Program-made: the position numbers and the translations under genes
The notes under the pieces: generated by a model
Told to the model about the DNA's origin: nothing
Seen by the model: only the letters and a program-made list of their open reading frames with translations
The model's database searches: none
Origin: Trueperaceae bacterium
GTDB lineage: Bacteria > Deinococcota > Deinococci > Deinococcales > Trueperaceae
Length of the DNA: 64,000 nt
Assembly: GCA_965215565.1 (NCBI GenBank)
Contig: CBDCDZ010000004.1
Coordinates: 1,376,001 to 1,440,000 of the forward strand
Direction: 5' to 3'
Part shown: one piece after another, positions 35,656-40,751 of the stretch
Layout of the letters: every line of letters starts with the position of its first letter
How positions within the stretch are numbered: position 1 is the first letter of the stretch

Positions 35656-35684
35656 TTGACACTCTACGTGAGGTTTGCTACACT
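35656..35684 (+). promoter_or_regulatory. Sigma70-type promoter of the RNA array
   Basis: TTGACA-17 nt-TACACT, ending 8 nt before the first Y-like RNA. Confidence 0.85.
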
Positions 35685-35692
35685 TCTAATTC

Positions 35693-35760
35693 GCGGACCG
35701 AAGAGACTTCGTTACCTGACTTTCCCTCAGACCTAACCCGAAGTTTCATGCCTCGTCCGC
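35693..35760 (+). ncRNA. Y RNA-like unit Y1 (minimal, no tRNA module)
   Basis: GCGGAC-C-GA/TC-GTCCGC bulged helix; AGACTTCG/CGAAGTTT stem; CCGA-N9-GTTACC; pyrimidine-rich loop. Confidence 0.75.
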
Positions 35761-35978
35761 CAATCTTTGAGAAAGGGAGACACTCACCGCTTGTGAGGTC
35801 GTGGACGCTATGAATAAACATTTTGTACAACCCGAACACGGCTCCATCCTGAGCGCCGAGTCCACCTGGTTACTCCAGCGTGATTCGCGGCGAGCATAAG
35901 GATATTAAGGTGAGTTGGACCCTTCGAATACTCTTAACCCCTAAAAACTGAATAGTACTCACCTTAATTTGGAGCAAT

Positions 35979-36115
35979 AAACGGGCCGAAGATGTTTCGT
36001 TATCTTGACTATGGAGTCCTGCAGGTTCAAATCCTGCCTCATCTTCGGATGAGTGGCGGAACTGGTAGACGCGAGAGAGCTTAGCTCTTATCGAAACGTC
36101 ATCCCTTGCCCGTTT
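35979..36115 (+). ncRNA. Y RNA-like unit Y2 (YrlA-like, permuted class II/Leu-like tRNA module)
   Basis: AAACGGGC-C-GA/TT-GCCCGTTT; T arm GCAGG-TTCAAAT-CCTGC; acceptor CTCATC-TTCG-GATGAG; D arm GGCGGAACTGGTAGACGC. Confidence 0.88.
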
Positions 36116-36231
36116 TTATAAGCAGTCCTACTGCATGTCTTGAAGACAATGCGAGTGCCACCACTGAATAAGCAGATCGGTGTGGCGCTTCTCATCTCAA
36201 AAATATGCGTAGGCAGAGGATACTTATGTCT

Positions 36232-36479
36232 GAAGGAGTTGCCTAAATGGGAGGGCGCAGCAAAAACATTCGGAGGCTGTCGCAAGCAGCGGGAGTACGA
36301 CTTGCTCTTTGGACGGGCGCATCGCGCCTAAACGTCTGAAGTGTGAGGTGCACGCCACAAGGTTTACAGATTGCACCTATAGCGGCCTACGGAAGTAGGT
36401 GGGACAAAGCAGCAAGGGAAGCAGGTTTTCCAAGGTGTGCTTTGCGTACTCTGTGCGGGTTCGAGTCCCGTCTCCTTCA
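36232..36479 (+). ncRNA. tRNA-like RNA with a very large structured insertion
   Basis: Acceptor GAAGGAG/CTCCTTC; D arm GCCT-AAATGGGA-GGGC; T arm GCGGG-TTCGAGT-CCCGT; ~195 nt of multi-hairpin sequence between the D and T arms. Confidence 0.75.
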
Positions 36480-36532
36480 CTACTAGCACTGAGGTTTTTC
36501 GTCTTCTATTACGCTTATGGAGTTATTCGTCA

Positions 36533-36708
36533 GATGGACCGAAGAGGTTTCGTTGTCGCACCCGTCAGGATTATGGTTCGCGGCTGAGCGGTAGGGCGCT
36601 GCAACTCGAGCAGAACCAAGTAAGGCGAAAGGCTGCGCTTGCCCTAGTTGCAGAGAGGGTTCGAGTCCCCCAGTTCACAATCTAGCGGAGCTTCACACCT
36701 TGTCCATC
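36533..36708 (+). ncRNA. Y RNA-like unit Y3 (non-permuted tRNA-like module)
   Basis: GATGGAC-C-GA/TT-GTCCATC; CCGA-N9-GTTGTC; CTGCAACT/AGTTGCAG stem followed by T-loop GGG-TTCGAGT-CCC. Confidence 0.75.
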
Positions 36709-36720
36709 CTTATTACGTTT

Positions 36721-36793
36721 GGTGCCATCGTTTAGCGGTCTAGGACTCGAGCCTTTCACGTTCGCAACAGGGGTTCAAATCCCCTTGGCACTA
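36721..36793 (+). tRNA. tRNA-Glu (TTC)
   Basis: GGTGCCA/TGGCACT; anticodon arm CGAGC-CT-TTC-AC-GTTCG; T arm AGGGG-TTCAAAT-CCCCT; CCA not encoded. Confidence 0.9.
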
Positions 36794-36810
36794 TCAAACT
36801 CCTCGCTTAT

Positions 36811-36942
36811 ATGTGGGCCGAAGCGTGTCCGTTATCGACTTCTAATCGGCGGGTCGCGGGTTCGAATCCTGCCTGACACCATGCGTGGTGTCAGTAGCTC
36901 AGTGGCAGAGCAGCTTTCGGGCATACACAATCTTGCCCACAT
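36811..36942 (+). ncRNA. Y RNA-like unit Y4 containing a circularly permuted tRNA-Arg(TCT)-like module
   Basis: ATGTGGGC-C-GA/TT-GCCCACAT; CGA-CT-TCT-AA-TCGGC; T arm GCGGG-TTCGAAT-CCTGC; acceptor CTGACACCA-TGCG-TGGTGTCAG; D arm GCTC-AGTGGCA-GAGC. Confidence 0.9.
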
Positions 36943-36946
36943 CTTT

Positions 36947-37020
36947 AGCGCCATCGTCTAACGGCAAGACTCGAGACTTTGACTCTCGTAATAGAGGTTC
37001 GAATCCTCTTGGCGCTTCCA
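36947..37020 (+). tRNA. tRNA-Gln (TTG)
   Basis: AGCGCCA/TGGCGCT; CGAGA-CT-TTG-AC-TCTCG; T arm AGAGG-TTCGAAT-CCTCT; encoded CCA. Confidence 0.93.
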
Positions 37021-37034
37021 TATTCTTCTCGCCT

Positions 37035-37108
37035 GGTGCCATCGTCTAACGGCAGGATTCCTGGTTCTTACCCAGAGGATAGAGGTTCGAATCCTCTTGG
37101 CACCACCA
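37035..37108 (+). tRNA. tRNA with CTT (Lys) anticodon on a Glu/Gln-type body
   Basis: GGTGCCA/TGGCACC; CCTGG-TT-CTT-AC-CCAGA (C27-A43 mismatch); 4-nt variable loop; encoded CCA. Confidence 0.82.
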
Positions 37109-37109
37109 C

Positions 37110-37237
37110 AACTAAGCCGAAGGGCGTTCGTTATCGGTCAGAGCCCCCGAAAGGGGAGGTCGCTGGTTCAACTCCAGCCTAGCCGCAAGGCTCAGTAGCT
37201 CAGGGAAACAACGCGAATGTCCACCCCTTGCTTAGTT
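37110..37237 (+). ncRNA. Y RNA-like unit Y5 (tRNA module opened in the D loop)
   Basis: AACTAAGC-C-GA/TT-GCTTAGTT; TCGGTCAGAGC, CCCC-GAAA-GGGG, AGGTC, T arm GCTGG-TTCAACT-CCAGC, AGCC-GCAA-GGCT, TAGCTCAG. Confidence 0.87.
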
Positions 37238-37248
37238 TTTCTATCAAG

Positions 37249-37490
37249 AGCGAGCCGATTGGGTTTCGTTATCGCCTGTCACGCTGGCGGTGCAGGTTCA
37301 GGAGCCTTCAGCAGCAGATGCTAACTGGTTATAGATGCGCTGGGTTCATAACGGGATGCTACCCGTCGCGTGGACTGCTCCCGCTAGATGCTGATGACTC
37401 CTTCCCACCTAGCGAGAGCTAGTCGTCTAATGGTTAGGACACCAAGTCGGAAGCAATCTCGACATACCGGAGCCCGCCACCTTGCTCGCT
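37249..37490 (+). ncRNA. Y RNA-like unit Y6 with a permuted tRNA-Asp(GTC)-like module and ~100-nt T-loop insertion
   Basis: AGCGAGC-C-GA/TT-GCTCGCT; GC-CT-GTC-AC-GCTGG; CTAGC-GAGA-GCTAG; D arm GTCT-AATGGTTA-GGAC then A-CCA. Confidence 0.82.
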
Positions 37491-37499
37491 TTATTTTGT

Positions 37500-37601
37500 A
37501 ACGGGCCGACGCAGTTCGGTTATCACAGGTTCGATTCTTGTTGGACCCATACGCGGGTCCACGCCTATGGAGGCAAGCTCGAGCTGTCCCTCTTGCCCGT
37601 T
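37500..37601 (+). ncRNA. Y RNA-like unit Y7 (classical YrlA architecture)
   Basis: AACGGGC-C-GA/TT-GCCCGTT; T arm ACAGG-TTCGATT-CTTGT; TGGACCC/GGGTCCA; D-like GCCT-ATGG-AGGC. Confidence 0.85.
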
Positions 37602-37792: not shown

Positions 37793-39385
37793 ATGCAAAA
37801 GTTCCATAAGCTCTTCTCACCCACCAAGACGGCGCAAAACCGTCCGCTGGATAGGTCGCAAATCAAGAATAGCGCGGGCGGGTACGTCTGGGCGCTGGAC
37901 CCGTGGAAGAGGCTCGAGCGCTTCCTCATCTTGGGGACGGAGGGCGGCACCTTTTACGTCCGCGAAGCGCCTCTTACGGTAGAGAACGCTGAAAACGTCG
38001 TCAAGCTCCTCACGGAAGATGGTGTCCGCGTCGTCGAGCGAGTCGTAGAGGTCAGCACGCAAGGTCGCGCCCACAAGAATGACCCGGCGCTCTTCGCCCT
38101 GGCGCTCGCGTTCACGGTAGGTGACGTGGACACAAAGCGTGCGGCGGAAGCGGCGCTGCCTAAGGTGGCGCGTACCGGCACGCACCTCTTCACCCTCATG
38201 ACCTACGTGAGCGAGATGCGCGGTTGGGGTCGTGTGCTGCGCCGTGCGGTGGCGGGTTGGTACGCCACTAGGGACGTGCAAGCCCTCGCGTACGGCGTGA
38301 CCAAGTACGCTCAGCGCGGCGGCTGGACGCACCGAGACGCCCTGCGTTTGGCGCACCCTAAGACGGATGACGCCGAGCGTGACGCGCTGTACCGTTACGT
38401 CACGGGGCACGGCGACAAGCTGAAGGAGGTGAGCGGCGAATGGGTTGACTACTTAAAGGCAGTCGAAGCAGTGAAGACCGAAACGGACGTGCAAGCGGTC
38501 GTGGACGCCATCACGCGCTACAACTTGCCGAGAGAGGTCATCCCCACCGAGATGCTCCGCAAGAGCGAAGTCTGGTCAGCGCTCCTGGCGCGTATGCCTA
38601 TGACTGCGACGATTCGCAACCTCGCGACGATGACCCGCGTCGGCTTGCTCACATCCATGAGTGAAGCTGCGGACGTTGTGACAGAGCGCATCACGGACGA
38701 AAAGGCGCTCCGCAAGACAAGGGTCCACCCCATCGCCATCCTCGCCGCGCTGATGACCTATAGCGCAGGGCGCGGCGCAAGAGGTAAGGGAACGTGGGAG
38801 CCCGTGCAAGAGGTTGTGAACGCACTCGACACCGCGTTCTACCGTTCGTTTGAGAACGTCGTGCCGATGGGCAAGCGCATCCTCATGGGGCTGGACGTAT
38901 CCGGCTCGATGACCTGGGGTGAAGTGGGTGGCGTACCCGGTCTGACGCCCCGCGTTGCAAGCGCTGCGCTCGCGCTGGTCACGGCGGCGACTGAACCTAA
39001 GCACACATTCATGGCGTTCTCGCATGAACTCGTGCCCGTCAAGATTTCGCCGCGTCAACGGCTGGACGACGTGGTGAAGCAACTGGACAGGATGCCTTTC
39101 GGCGGGACGGACGCCTCGCTGCCGATGCTTTACGCGGCGCAGAAGGGGCTCGAGGTTGACGCCTTCGTCGTCTTGACCGACAGCGAGACTTGGTTCGGCA
39201 AGCAGCACCCTGCCGAAGCGTTGCTCGAGTACCGCCGCAAGACGGGCATCCCTGCCAAGCTCATCGTCGTCGGGATGCTTGGCAACCGTTTCACGATTGC
39301 GGACCCGTTTGATGCTGGCATGTTGGACGTGGTCGGGTTCAGCACGGATATACCCACAGTTATTGCGGATTTCATTCGCAAATAG
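37793..39385 (+). CDS. rsr: Ro60 ortholog (TROVE + vWA domain Y RNA-binding protein)
   Basis: NSAGGYVW, RLERFLILGTEGGTFY, GWGR, RGGWTHRDALRLAHPK, MPMTATIRNL, MIDAS DVSGSM, GGTD, TDSET, DAGMLDVVGF. Confidence 0.97.
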   Translation: MQKFHKLFSPTKTAQNRPLDRSQIKNSAGGYVWALDPWKRLERFLILGTEGGTFYVREAPLTVENAENVVKLLTEDGVRVVERVVEVSTQGRAHKNDPALFALALAFTVGDVDTKRAAEAALPKVARTGTHLFTLMTYVSEMRGWGRVLRRAVAGWYATRDVQALAYGVTKYAQRGGWTHRDALRLAHPKTDDAERDALYRYVTGHGDKLKEVSGEWVDYLKAVEAVKTETDVQAVVDAITRYNLPREVIPTEMLRKSEVWSALLARMPMTATIRNLATMTRVGLLTSMSEAADVVTERITDEKALRKTRVHPIAILAALMTYSAGRGARGKGTWEPVQEVVNALDTAFYRSFENVVPMGKRILMGLDVSGSMTWGEVGGVPGLTPRVASAALALVTAATEPKHTFMAFSHELVPVKISPRQRLDDVVKQLDRMPFGGTDASLPMLYAAQKGLEVDAFVVLTDSETWFGKQHPAEALLEYRRKTGIPAKLIVVGMLGNRFTIADPFDAGMLDVVGFSTDIPTVIADFIRK

Positions 39386-39533: not shown

Positions 39534-40751
39534 ATGATGCAAGTAGATAGCATTTCTGTCTTCGGTCAACACGACGAAAAGACGTTGAAGCAGCTTAAAG
39601 ATGTAGCGACGAGGGCTGAGAAAGTCGCCCTCATGTCAGACGGACACTTGGGCTACATCATGCCCATCGGCGGCGTTGCAGCGTACGACAATAAGGTGTC
39701 TGTCGCAGGAATTGGATTTGATATCGCGTGCGGCAATGCCGCGATTAAAACGGATTTGACCCTGGGGCAACTCGAGCCCAACCTCACCGCGCTAGCCGAC
39801 GAAATCGCTGAGGTCATCTCCTTTGGCGTCGGACGCAAAAACACCTCAGATGACGCATCTGTAAACGATCCCCTTTTTGAGGACGCTGCTTGGGAAATAG
39901 TTCCAACGAAGAAGGGCGTGCGCCAGCGTCTCTTGAACAAGGCGCGTAACCAGCTTGGCACGGTAGGCTCGGGCAATCACTATGTGGACGTCTTTGCAGA
40001 CGAGGAAGGCGTGATTTGGGTTGGGGTGCACTTCGGCTCTCGCGGCTTCGGTCACACTATCGCCTCCACCTTCATGGCACTTCATCAGGGCGGCACCTGG
40101 AGCGATAAGGGTAAAGAAACCGAGGCACTTCTCAGCTTGGACGACGAGTTGGGCAAGGATTACTGGGCGCTCATGACGCTCGCGGGGCGCTACGCTTACG
40201 TCGGGCGCGAGTGGGTCGCGCGCAAGGTCGTGGAGATTTTGGGCGGGACGGAAAGAGAACTCGTCCACAACCACCACAATTACGCTTGGAAAGAGGTGCA
40301 TGACGAGCGTGAACTGGTTGTGGTGCGCAAAGGGGCGACGCCTGCGTTTCCCGGACAGAAGGGTTTCGTCGGCGGCAGCATGGGCGATGACGCTGTCATC
40401 TTACAAGGCCGAACGGATGCAGATGACGGGACAAAAGCCAAACAAGAAGCCGCCCTCTACTCCACCGTGCACGGCGCAGGTCGCGTGATGAGCCGCACGC
40501 GGGCGGCGGGTAAATGGGACTATAAGCGTAAGGTCCGCAAGACCGAAGGGCTGATTTCGCAAGCGATGATGAAGGCGTGGCTCGCCGAAAAAGAGGTCAT
40601 CTTGCGCGGCGGCGGCTTGGACGAAGCGCCGCAAGCCTACCGCCGTTTGCCTGACGTATTGGCGTCGCAGGGCGCGACTGTGGAGGTCTTACATACGCTC
40701 ACGCCGCTCATCGTGGTGATGGCGGGGGCGAATGAGTTTGACCCATATTAA
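39534..40751 (+). CDS. rtcB: RtcB family RNA ligase
   Basis: DGHLGY-MPIGG, GFDIACG, QLGTVGSGNHY, HFGSRG, HNHHN, RKGATPA, HGAGR, DEAPQAY. Confidence 0.96.
   Translation: MMQVDSISVFGQHDEKTLKQLKDVATRAEKVALMSDGHLGYIMPIGGVAAYDNKVSVAGIGFDIACGNAAIKTDLTLGQLEPNLTALADEIAEVISFGVGRKNTSDDASVNDPLFEDAAWEIVPTKKGVRQRLLNKARNQLGTVGSGNHYVDVFADEEGVIWVGVHFGSRGFGHTIASTFMALHQGGTWSDKGKETEALLSLDDELGKDYWALMTLAGRYAYVGREWVARKVVEILGGTERELVHNHHNYAWKEVHDERELVVVRKGATPAFPGQKGFVGGSMGDDAVILQGRTDADDGTKAKQEAALYSTVHGAGRVMSRTRAAGKWDYKRKVRKTEGLISQAMMKAWLAEKEVILRGGGLDEAPQAYRRLPDVLASQGATVEVLHTLTPLIVVMAGANEFDPY

Follow-up and report, generated by a model that had tools for sequence, protein, structure and literature searches.

We found a widespread family of tRNA-shaped RNAs in which the loop at the anticodon position is predicted to pair with the RNA's own extra domain, so that these molecules would be unable to read codons. 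The member described here is a single-copy gene on the forward strand of a 64,000-nt stretch of Trueperaceae DNA (hereafter the window); it combines a tRNA frame with a giant variable-arm domain and measures 248 nt up to the discriminator base, which is followed by CTA (36232-36482). At least 178 distinct sequences of 148-290 nt share this design in phages, Deinococcota, Myxococcota, Cyanobacteria and other groups, and conservation and covariation make it very probable that the family and its fold are real. Non-decoding tRNA mimics as such are already known; the family and the anticodon-locking pseudoknot appear, as far as we found, to be new.

A tRNA frame with a giant variable arm

The tRNA scaffold lies exactly where the original prediction had placed it. 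The 5' acceptor strand GAAGGAG (36232-36238) pairs with CTCCTTC (36472-36478), a D arm with a 4-bp stem and G18G19 follows (36241-36256), its A15 pairing with U48 (36454), and a T arm with G49.U65, C50-G64 and G51-C63 (36455-36471) precedes the acceptor's 3' strand, discriminator A36479 and CTA. The distance between the D and T arms, given earlier as about 195 nt, is 198 nt. A canonical anticodon loop is indeed missing, but the extra domain does not replace the anticodon region together with the variable region, as had been proposed: a hairpin with a 14-nt loop lacking U33 occupies the anticodon position (36257-36280), and the variable arm alone is replaced. The insert, likewise on the forward strand, has an outer helix (36293-36299 with 36445-36451), an optional side domain GACTTGCT..GTGTGAGG with a GGCGC/GCGCC hairpin inside (36299-36349), and a basal helix, GCACGCC/GGTGTGC, under the core (36350-36356 with 36434-36440). 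The core itself consists of strand 1, UUUACAGAUUGCACC (36363-36377; family consensus UUGCRGAWGCACY), and strand 2, GGGAAGCAGGUUUUCC (36416-36431; consensus RGGAAGCRCGUUU), separated by a variable cap with a CCTAC-GGAA-GTAGG hairpin (36378-36415).

An orthologue in a genome of another genus of the same bacterial family is 82% identical, ends in CCA and sits in a similar cassette. It keeps all seven pairs of the outer helix with one two-sided change, and has four two-sided changes in the TTTGGACG/CGTCTGAA helix of the side domain. A long-scaffold scan of the whole genome returned two matches, the window RNA and a GC-rich stretch lacking the core; the reversed genome gave none. Two contig sets cover the gene and show no variants in it, but both come from a single sample that may itself be the source, so that they are not independent support. 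The window RNA is called neither by ARAGORN nor by Rfam at gathering level, and in an Rfam search to E 10 the only overlap is a 12-bit fragment of the tmRNA T arm. This copy deviates from the family in its A3-U70 pair, its CTA end and a mismatch at the fourth pseudoknot pair. Directly 5' of it lies a long hairpin element (36122-36218), which is absent from the same-genus genome G001 and from G243 and has no homologue among the loci compared.

The family was collected by BLAST in relatives, where one real match in 60 genomes led to about 20 more, and by searching contigs of viruses, genomes and metagenomes for patterns and passing the matches through a parser, which yielded at least 206 candidates, at least 191 with a good frame and at least 178 with frame, core and loop. 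Three members longer than 290 nt, probably parsed wrongly, were removed, and the working set comprises 175 (58 from viral contigs, 49 from genome contigs, 48 from metagenomes and 20 from the genome searches). Family counts obtained by such pattern scans and custom parsers are lower bounds, and variation is invisible at positions that a pattern fixed. Nothing stated here depends on the unpublished genome G035. The parsed genome loci belong to Myxococcota, Cyanobacteria, Deinococcus, Bacteroidota and Bacillota; other pattern matches, for example rows from Pseudomonas, were rejected by the parser. The pattern occurs in 31 of 364 Deinococcota genomes, and inspection left 23 true members. Cultured Streptomyces phages, Comrade among them, and the Ralstonia phage RSP15 carry the RNA unannotated, and three queries gave no match in plasmids.

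The acceptor, D and T stems covary in an alignment of 45 sequences (98.4% of cells paired, two-sided changes at 15 of 18 pairs), where the acceptor has two-sided changes at all seven pairs and 99% of its cells paired, and none of 500 shuffles reached the covariation score of the tRNA frame. The 4-bp D stem is paired in 94% of cells. The tertiary pair 15:48 covaries too (MI 0.42), A15-U48 swapping with G15-C48, and this, together with the covarying stems, argues that the L shape is under selection. Every parsed member has the arms in normal order and a 7/5 frame, with 94-228 nt between the D and T arms, and the insert takes the place of the variable arm, 3' of the anticodon-position stem. That stem has at least four Watson-Crick pairs in 138 of the 175 members, compared with 19% in non-cognate pairings. 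In the variable arm, optional side helices and the basal helix accompany two strands that hardly vary (UUGCRGAWGCAC-Y and R-GGAAGCRCGUU); these strands are closed by a covarying C-Y/R-G pair, and their cap is free to vary in sequence. The side-domain motif of the window copy recurs in 29 of 175 members. The T arm accompanies the core in 25 of 26 complete matches.

The original prediction of a non-coding RNA that uses tRNA ends is borne out by conservation and covariation across these at least 178 relatives. The locus and nine relatives gave no family-specific match in Rfam 15. Processing by RNase P and CCA addition, as also proposed there, would suit such ends. CCA is encoded in 35 of 175 members and tracks the habit of the neighbouring tRNAs (9/18 vs 4/59). 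The T stem is narrower in sequence than in 630 neighbouring tRNAs (G51-C63 in 86% vs 52%, G49.U65 in 41% vs 16%), unlike acceptor pairs 2-6, which drift freely. The T-stem pairs concerned tune EF-Tu binding (PMC9976931, part of the article), although ancestry could be an alternative cause of this uniformity. G3.U70 is present in 31 of 175 members, and acceptor identity is not conserved. There is no recurring partner protein, the commonest neighbour being an HNH nuclease (9 loci). Individual members depart from the common plan: the Deinococcus copy L022:1408-1689 has a 71-nt insertion in its D loop, the Deinococcus copy L028 is decayed but retains its upstream motif, the subgroup L046, L340, L381 and L387 has an atypical D region (CAACGA..GG) and the loop GCAACG, and the short member L281 scores 33 bits with the tRNA model RF00005.

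A pseudoknot at the anticodon position

The AAC(G) of the anticodon-position loop is complementary to the (C)GUU of the core; in the window, AAAAC (36263-36267) forms the 5' strand and GUUUU (36425-36429), within core strand 2, its partner. Of 125 members, 121 have AAC within positions 29-44, where the background is 18%. Because the earlier patterns had fixed GUU, a scan was run with GUU left free, and it gave 40 matches, 33 canonical and 1 by chance. Two phage members (L604, L623) exchange C-G for U-A and read AAUG/CAUU, a third (L617) exchanges A-U for G-C and reads AGC/GCU, and phage RSP15 carries a matched 2-nt insertion on both strands (AACAUG/CGUGUU). An uncompensated mismatch is found in the related pair L603 and L609 and in L629, and the fourth pair, mismatched in the window, is paired in 80% of the family. 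The UU of core strand 1, retained in 168 of 175 members, could form U-A.U triples with the pseudoknot. The loop itself ranges from 6 to 24 nt (123-member set) and is nearly always a run of A followed by C. Since C35 changes to U together with a matching change in the core, it appears to be kept for pairing, not decoding. None of the 175 members has a canonical anticodon loop (5-bp stem and 7-nt Y32-U33 loop), and therefore neither the RNA nor a spliced product would be able to decode. Pseudoknot I of the dicistrovirus IGR IRES similarly pairs an anticodon-like loop in cis with a codon-like stretch, but it belongs to the leader of a viral mRNA and has no tRNA ends, and the likeness is by analogy only.

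The fold of the insert is also revised here. All helices named in the original prediction are present as text, but two of them, AGGTGCA/TGCACCT and CAAAGCA/TGCTTTG, clash with pairs that covary across members, namely the C-Y/R-G pair that closes the core (MI 0.76) and the basal helix, whose cognate duplex beats non-cognate ones in 152 of 175 members. Stability counts against the revised structure, as the revised fold, calculated at -91.7 kcal/mol with the pseudoknot left out, is 6 kcal/mol weaker than the one proposed earlier (-97.7 kcal/mol; z -2.55 in a comparison with 200 shuffles). The single close orthologue retains six of seven pairs under either fold.

Among known RNAs, tmRNA (RF00023) resembles the family in having tRNA ends around a large structured insert and a similar T arm, and the Deinococcus and family-f5 copies also have G3.U70, A73 and CCA. 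However, the family RNA has a 4-bp D stem and an anticodon-position hairpin, is half the size of tmRNA or less, and holds no tag frame ending in AA-stop (tag-like in 1 of 175). The missing tag frame, the D stem and the lack of a general G3.U70 rule out tmRNA; the host genome has its own. YrlA (RF02553; PMC4201824, part of the article) is likewise a tRNA mimic with D and T arms and covarying 15:48 beside rsr/rtcB, but it is circularly permuted with a Ro-binding stem, whereas the family RNA is unpermuted, with free tRNA ends and without that motif. The phage 'stable RNAs' (T4 RNAC and RNAD, T5 RNA1 and RNA2, and others), which their annotations give as non-decoding RNAs of 73-172 nt from tRNA clusters with function unknown, show either core strand in 0 of 9. 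Class II tRNAs, tRNA-Sec and allo-tRNAs (PMC7609411, part of the article) also have an extra domain in the variable arm, but decode through a normal anticodon loop, and the frames of tRNA-Sec and allo-tRNAs are 8/5, 9/4, 8/4 or 9/3 rather than 7/5. With tRNA itself (RF00005) the family shares the 7-bp acceptor, D arm, T arm and 15:48, without the canonical anticodon loop. At the locus and in nine relatives there was no match to the Rfam models skipping-rope (RF02924, 80 positions long), DUF2693-FD (RF02926), salivarius-1 (RF03030), GOLLD, ROOL or OLE, nor to the known small self-cleaving ribozyme classes. The literature searched, including the accessible parts of PMC7609411, PMC11109978 and PMC10690425, describes neither the family nor the pseudoknot, although a subscription paper could hold the family. 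Core sequence strings had no literature match; none occurs in six supplementary files of the phage structured-RNA catalogue PMC10690425, whose other files may hold the family.

Genomic setting and upstream motifs

In the window the RNA lies in a 2-kb non-coding cluster upstream of rsr, the Ro60 orthologue (37793-39385; TROVE and vWA_Ro60), and the RNA ligase gene rtcB (39534-40751; PF01139), all on the forward strand. A sigma-70-like promoter, TTGACA-17-TACACT (35656-35684), stands ahead of the cluster, and both hexamers are kept in G001, which has the same cassette without the giant tRNA-shaped RNA. Seven Y-RNA-like genes (35693-37600; at 35696, 35984, 36537, 36816, 37115, 37253 and 37504) carry a Ro-binding-type 5' motif as defined in part of PMC4201824. 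None of them attains an Rfam gathering score; the YrlA model gives 37 bits at 36814-36942, below its gathering score of 69. Interspersed are tRNA-Glu(TTC) (36720-36795), tRNA-Gln(TTG) (36947-37020) and a tRNA with anticodon CTT (37035-37108), which has a Gln/Glu-type body, is the genome's only Lys(CTT) call and has a similar gene in G001 (L459:3421-3494).

The cluster holds further unusual elements. In the Y-like gene at 36537, an expanded anticodon region seems to be flanked by D and T arms that are not permuted. A Y-like RNA is interrupted in its T loop by an element of about 100 nt (37303-37415), and one 84% identical to it lies in the T loop of a tRNA-Gln of G243 (L456:3770-3830); this may represent a small mobile RNA element with T loops as its target. 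A non-coding stretch at 35766-35980, 79% conserved in G001, ends in a long inverted repeat and has no Rfam match.

Across the family, the RNA recurs in tRNA arrays, in Ro60/Y RNA/RtcB cassettes, or downstream of promoter motifs common to rtcB. A tRNA lies within 1 kb of 113 of the 175 members. Long tRNA arrays are found in Deinococcota, with 23 genes adjoining Ro60 in one case (L458, G056:C24) and 17 genes in another (L457, G209:C3). A Ro60 or RtcB gene is present in the retrieved flanks of 9 of 175 loci (119 loci have flanks of at least 2.9 kb). Ro60 lies within about 4 kb in seven of eight family-f5 carriers, as in the window, and near two actinophage copies, but not at Myxococcota or standalone Deinococcus copies. 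RtcB is encoded in 23 of 23 carriers, which is weak evidence because it is common (10 of 14 control genomes). The RtcB connection of the original prediction thus holds for shared location and upstream motifs, but not for splicing.

A 17-nt motif with the consensus TAAGCCATTTGGCGGAT precedes 12 of 13 standalone Deinococcus copies by 51-56 nt; it was not found upstream of the window copy. Four Deinococcus genomes contain 29 sites, compared with 14 in the reversed control; three precede the family RNA, 10 are unexplained, and 16 precede recognisable genes, namely RtcB, NFACT, two HflX, three Lon, an ABC-F type protein, MetRS, five GNAT, a methyltransferase and a P-loop protein. In five more genomes there are 22 sites against 12, and a MutS_V protein, which we take to be MutS2, is downstream of five of them, one per genome. 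The totals across genomes are two HflX, four Lon and two ABC-F-type genes, with MutS_V in five of five genomes. The motif reaches at least 10 upstream of five of 11 further rtcB loci, and none of 200 random kilobases reaches 12. It was first derived from the family RNA's own upstream DNA and is only about twofold over the reversed control, and acetyltransferases and peptidases also follow it. As a candidate translation-stress motif of Deinococcus it reads TAAGCCAYYYGGCG(G/C)AT, about 35-55 nt before rtcB operons and other target genes (L632-L683, L728-L738); we found no description of it in the literature searched.

In Myxococcota, GTCAG-N-CGTCG stands 8-12 nt upstream of 12 of 20 standalone copies, against a background of 0.2%. 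The promoter-like GTCAG-N-CGTC also precedes one rtcB paralogue in five of five Myxococcota genomes (L684-L687, L693), and is absent before four other Myxococcota rtcB starts checked. Genome-wide scans of three genomes gave no excess of this motif over the reversed control, and we therefore rely on the targeted rtcB result alone. RqcH and HflX are ribosome-rescue factors (PMC8373112; PMC8874680), translation stress co-induces long tRNA arrays and rtcB in Anabaena (PMC8421152), and the rsr-yrl-rtcB operon is responsive to broken tRNAs in Salmonella (PMC7790460), as stated in parts of these articles.

Possible roles of the RNA

A role in stress is probable, judged from this placement and from the upstream motifs. 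As the specific form of this role we tentatively propose a tRNA mimic that does not decode, is induced by stress and forms part of the translation-stress and RNA-repair response, and that may engage stalled translation; that the ribosome is its direct target is a conjecture that we rate as somewhat less likely than not. The RNA would be made under translation stress, cut from its transcript like a tRNA and supplied with CCA, and its top half would be handled as that of an elongator tRNA. The self-paired loop and the core might, at a guess, replace the codon-anticodon helix, and the RNA might then act on ribosomes, or on split 50S subunits, that no longer carry mRNA and help to clear them alongside RqcH, MutS2 and HflX. 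Several observations speak against this proposal: a domain of 70-200 nt tied to the anticodon end may not fit the ribosomal A site, a tag-like frame occurs in only one of 175 members and a recurring partner protein in none, acceptor identity is not conserved, and the uniform T stem could be a matter of ancestry. The weak fourth pseudoknot pair, the uncompensated L603, L609 and L629, and the self-derived, roughly twofold Deinococcus motif missing before the window copy also weigh on it. A bolder version, which we regard as doubtful, makes the RNA a tRNA with its own codon: AACG and CGUU would pair in cis, possibly as a triple helix that includes the UU of core strand 1, and the core would replace SmpB or mRNA, giving an RNA-only ribosome-rescue factor distinct from tmRNA. 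Phages and tRNA arrays would, on the same doubtful footing, spread it between phyla, and hosts would wire it into their ribosome-quality-control regulon.

The RNA might instead serve as an uncleavable decoy or inhibitor of anticodon nucleases: its tRNA shape would bind the nuclease, the pseudoknot would hide the loop, real tRNAs would be spared and RtcB would repair those already cut. Its placement with spare tRNAs, Y RNAs and RtcB, with a tRNA nearby in most members, and its frequency in phages would suit such a function, but a decoy would need no 25-nt core conserved across phyla. Moreover, anticodon nucleases differ from one another and recognise particular sequences, whereas the loop stays the same, and we consider this explanation rather improbable, even though the same role has been proposed for YrlA (in part of PMC7790460).

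It is also unlikely that the core is a ribozyme, self-cleaving or ligating, of a new class on a tRNA scaffold, whose 2',3'-cyclic-phosphate and 5'-OH ends would be RtcB substrates or a damage signal. Small ribozymes are typically laid out as short invariant strands with a pseudoknot and freely varying caps, and the core has this layout. It is nearly always joined to a T arm, and rtcB is the one gene linked to the family in three phyla; yet the Deinococcus motif also stands before many genes other than rtcB, neither the narrow T stem nor the CCA tracking would be required of a ribozyme, and no Rfam ribozyme model matches at the locus or in nine relatives.

A further kind of Y RNA that partners Ro60 would explain why the RNA sits among seven Y-like genes before rsr and close to Ro60 in family f5 and two actinophages. 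This identity is nevertheless very unlikely, because the Ro motif is missing (only 4 of 175 members have GNCGAA in their first 25 nt) and the tRNA arms are in normal, not permuted, order; among the carriers searched, moreover, 6 of 23 in Deinococcota and 5 of 5 in Myxococcota yielded no Ro60. Just as improbable is a functionless processing punctuation or selfish passenger of tRNA arrays: the patchy distribution (23 of 364 Deinococcota genomes), the lack of the RNA in the G001 cassette and the decayed L028 would agree with it, but the core is invariant, the pseudoknot is compensated, and standalone copies have their own conserved upstream motifs in two phyla. The other suggestion of the original prediction, a tRNA gene with an unusual intron whose halves RtcB would join into a working tRNA, has the intact tRNA ends and nearness to rtcB on its side and is nonetheless extremely unlikely, as the insert lies outside the anticodon arm and its excision therefore cannot yield a decoding tRNA, canonical anticodon loops are wholly lacking, no group I model matches to E 10, no neighbouring isotype is enriched (Arg 15% vs 14%), and C35 changes to U with the core. 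Relaxed ARAGORN intron calls were noise, and an origin from tRNA-Arg(ACG) with ArgRS identity, to which a loop reading ACG could point, was rejected (no excess of Arg neighbours, A20 in only 61%, compensated C35 swaps).

The family constitutes a cross-phylum RNA class with an invariant core that tRNA finders and Rfam have missed. Its study uncovered candidate translation-stress promoter motifs in Deinococcus and Myxococcota. The smallest members measure about 150 nt, and cultured phages as well as named Deinococcus species carry them, so that the proposed stress-induced tRNA mimic is amenable to direct testing. It may connect three poorly understood features of bacterial biology: the stress-induced long tRNA arrays, the Ro60-Y RNA-RtcB cassette and ribosome quality control.
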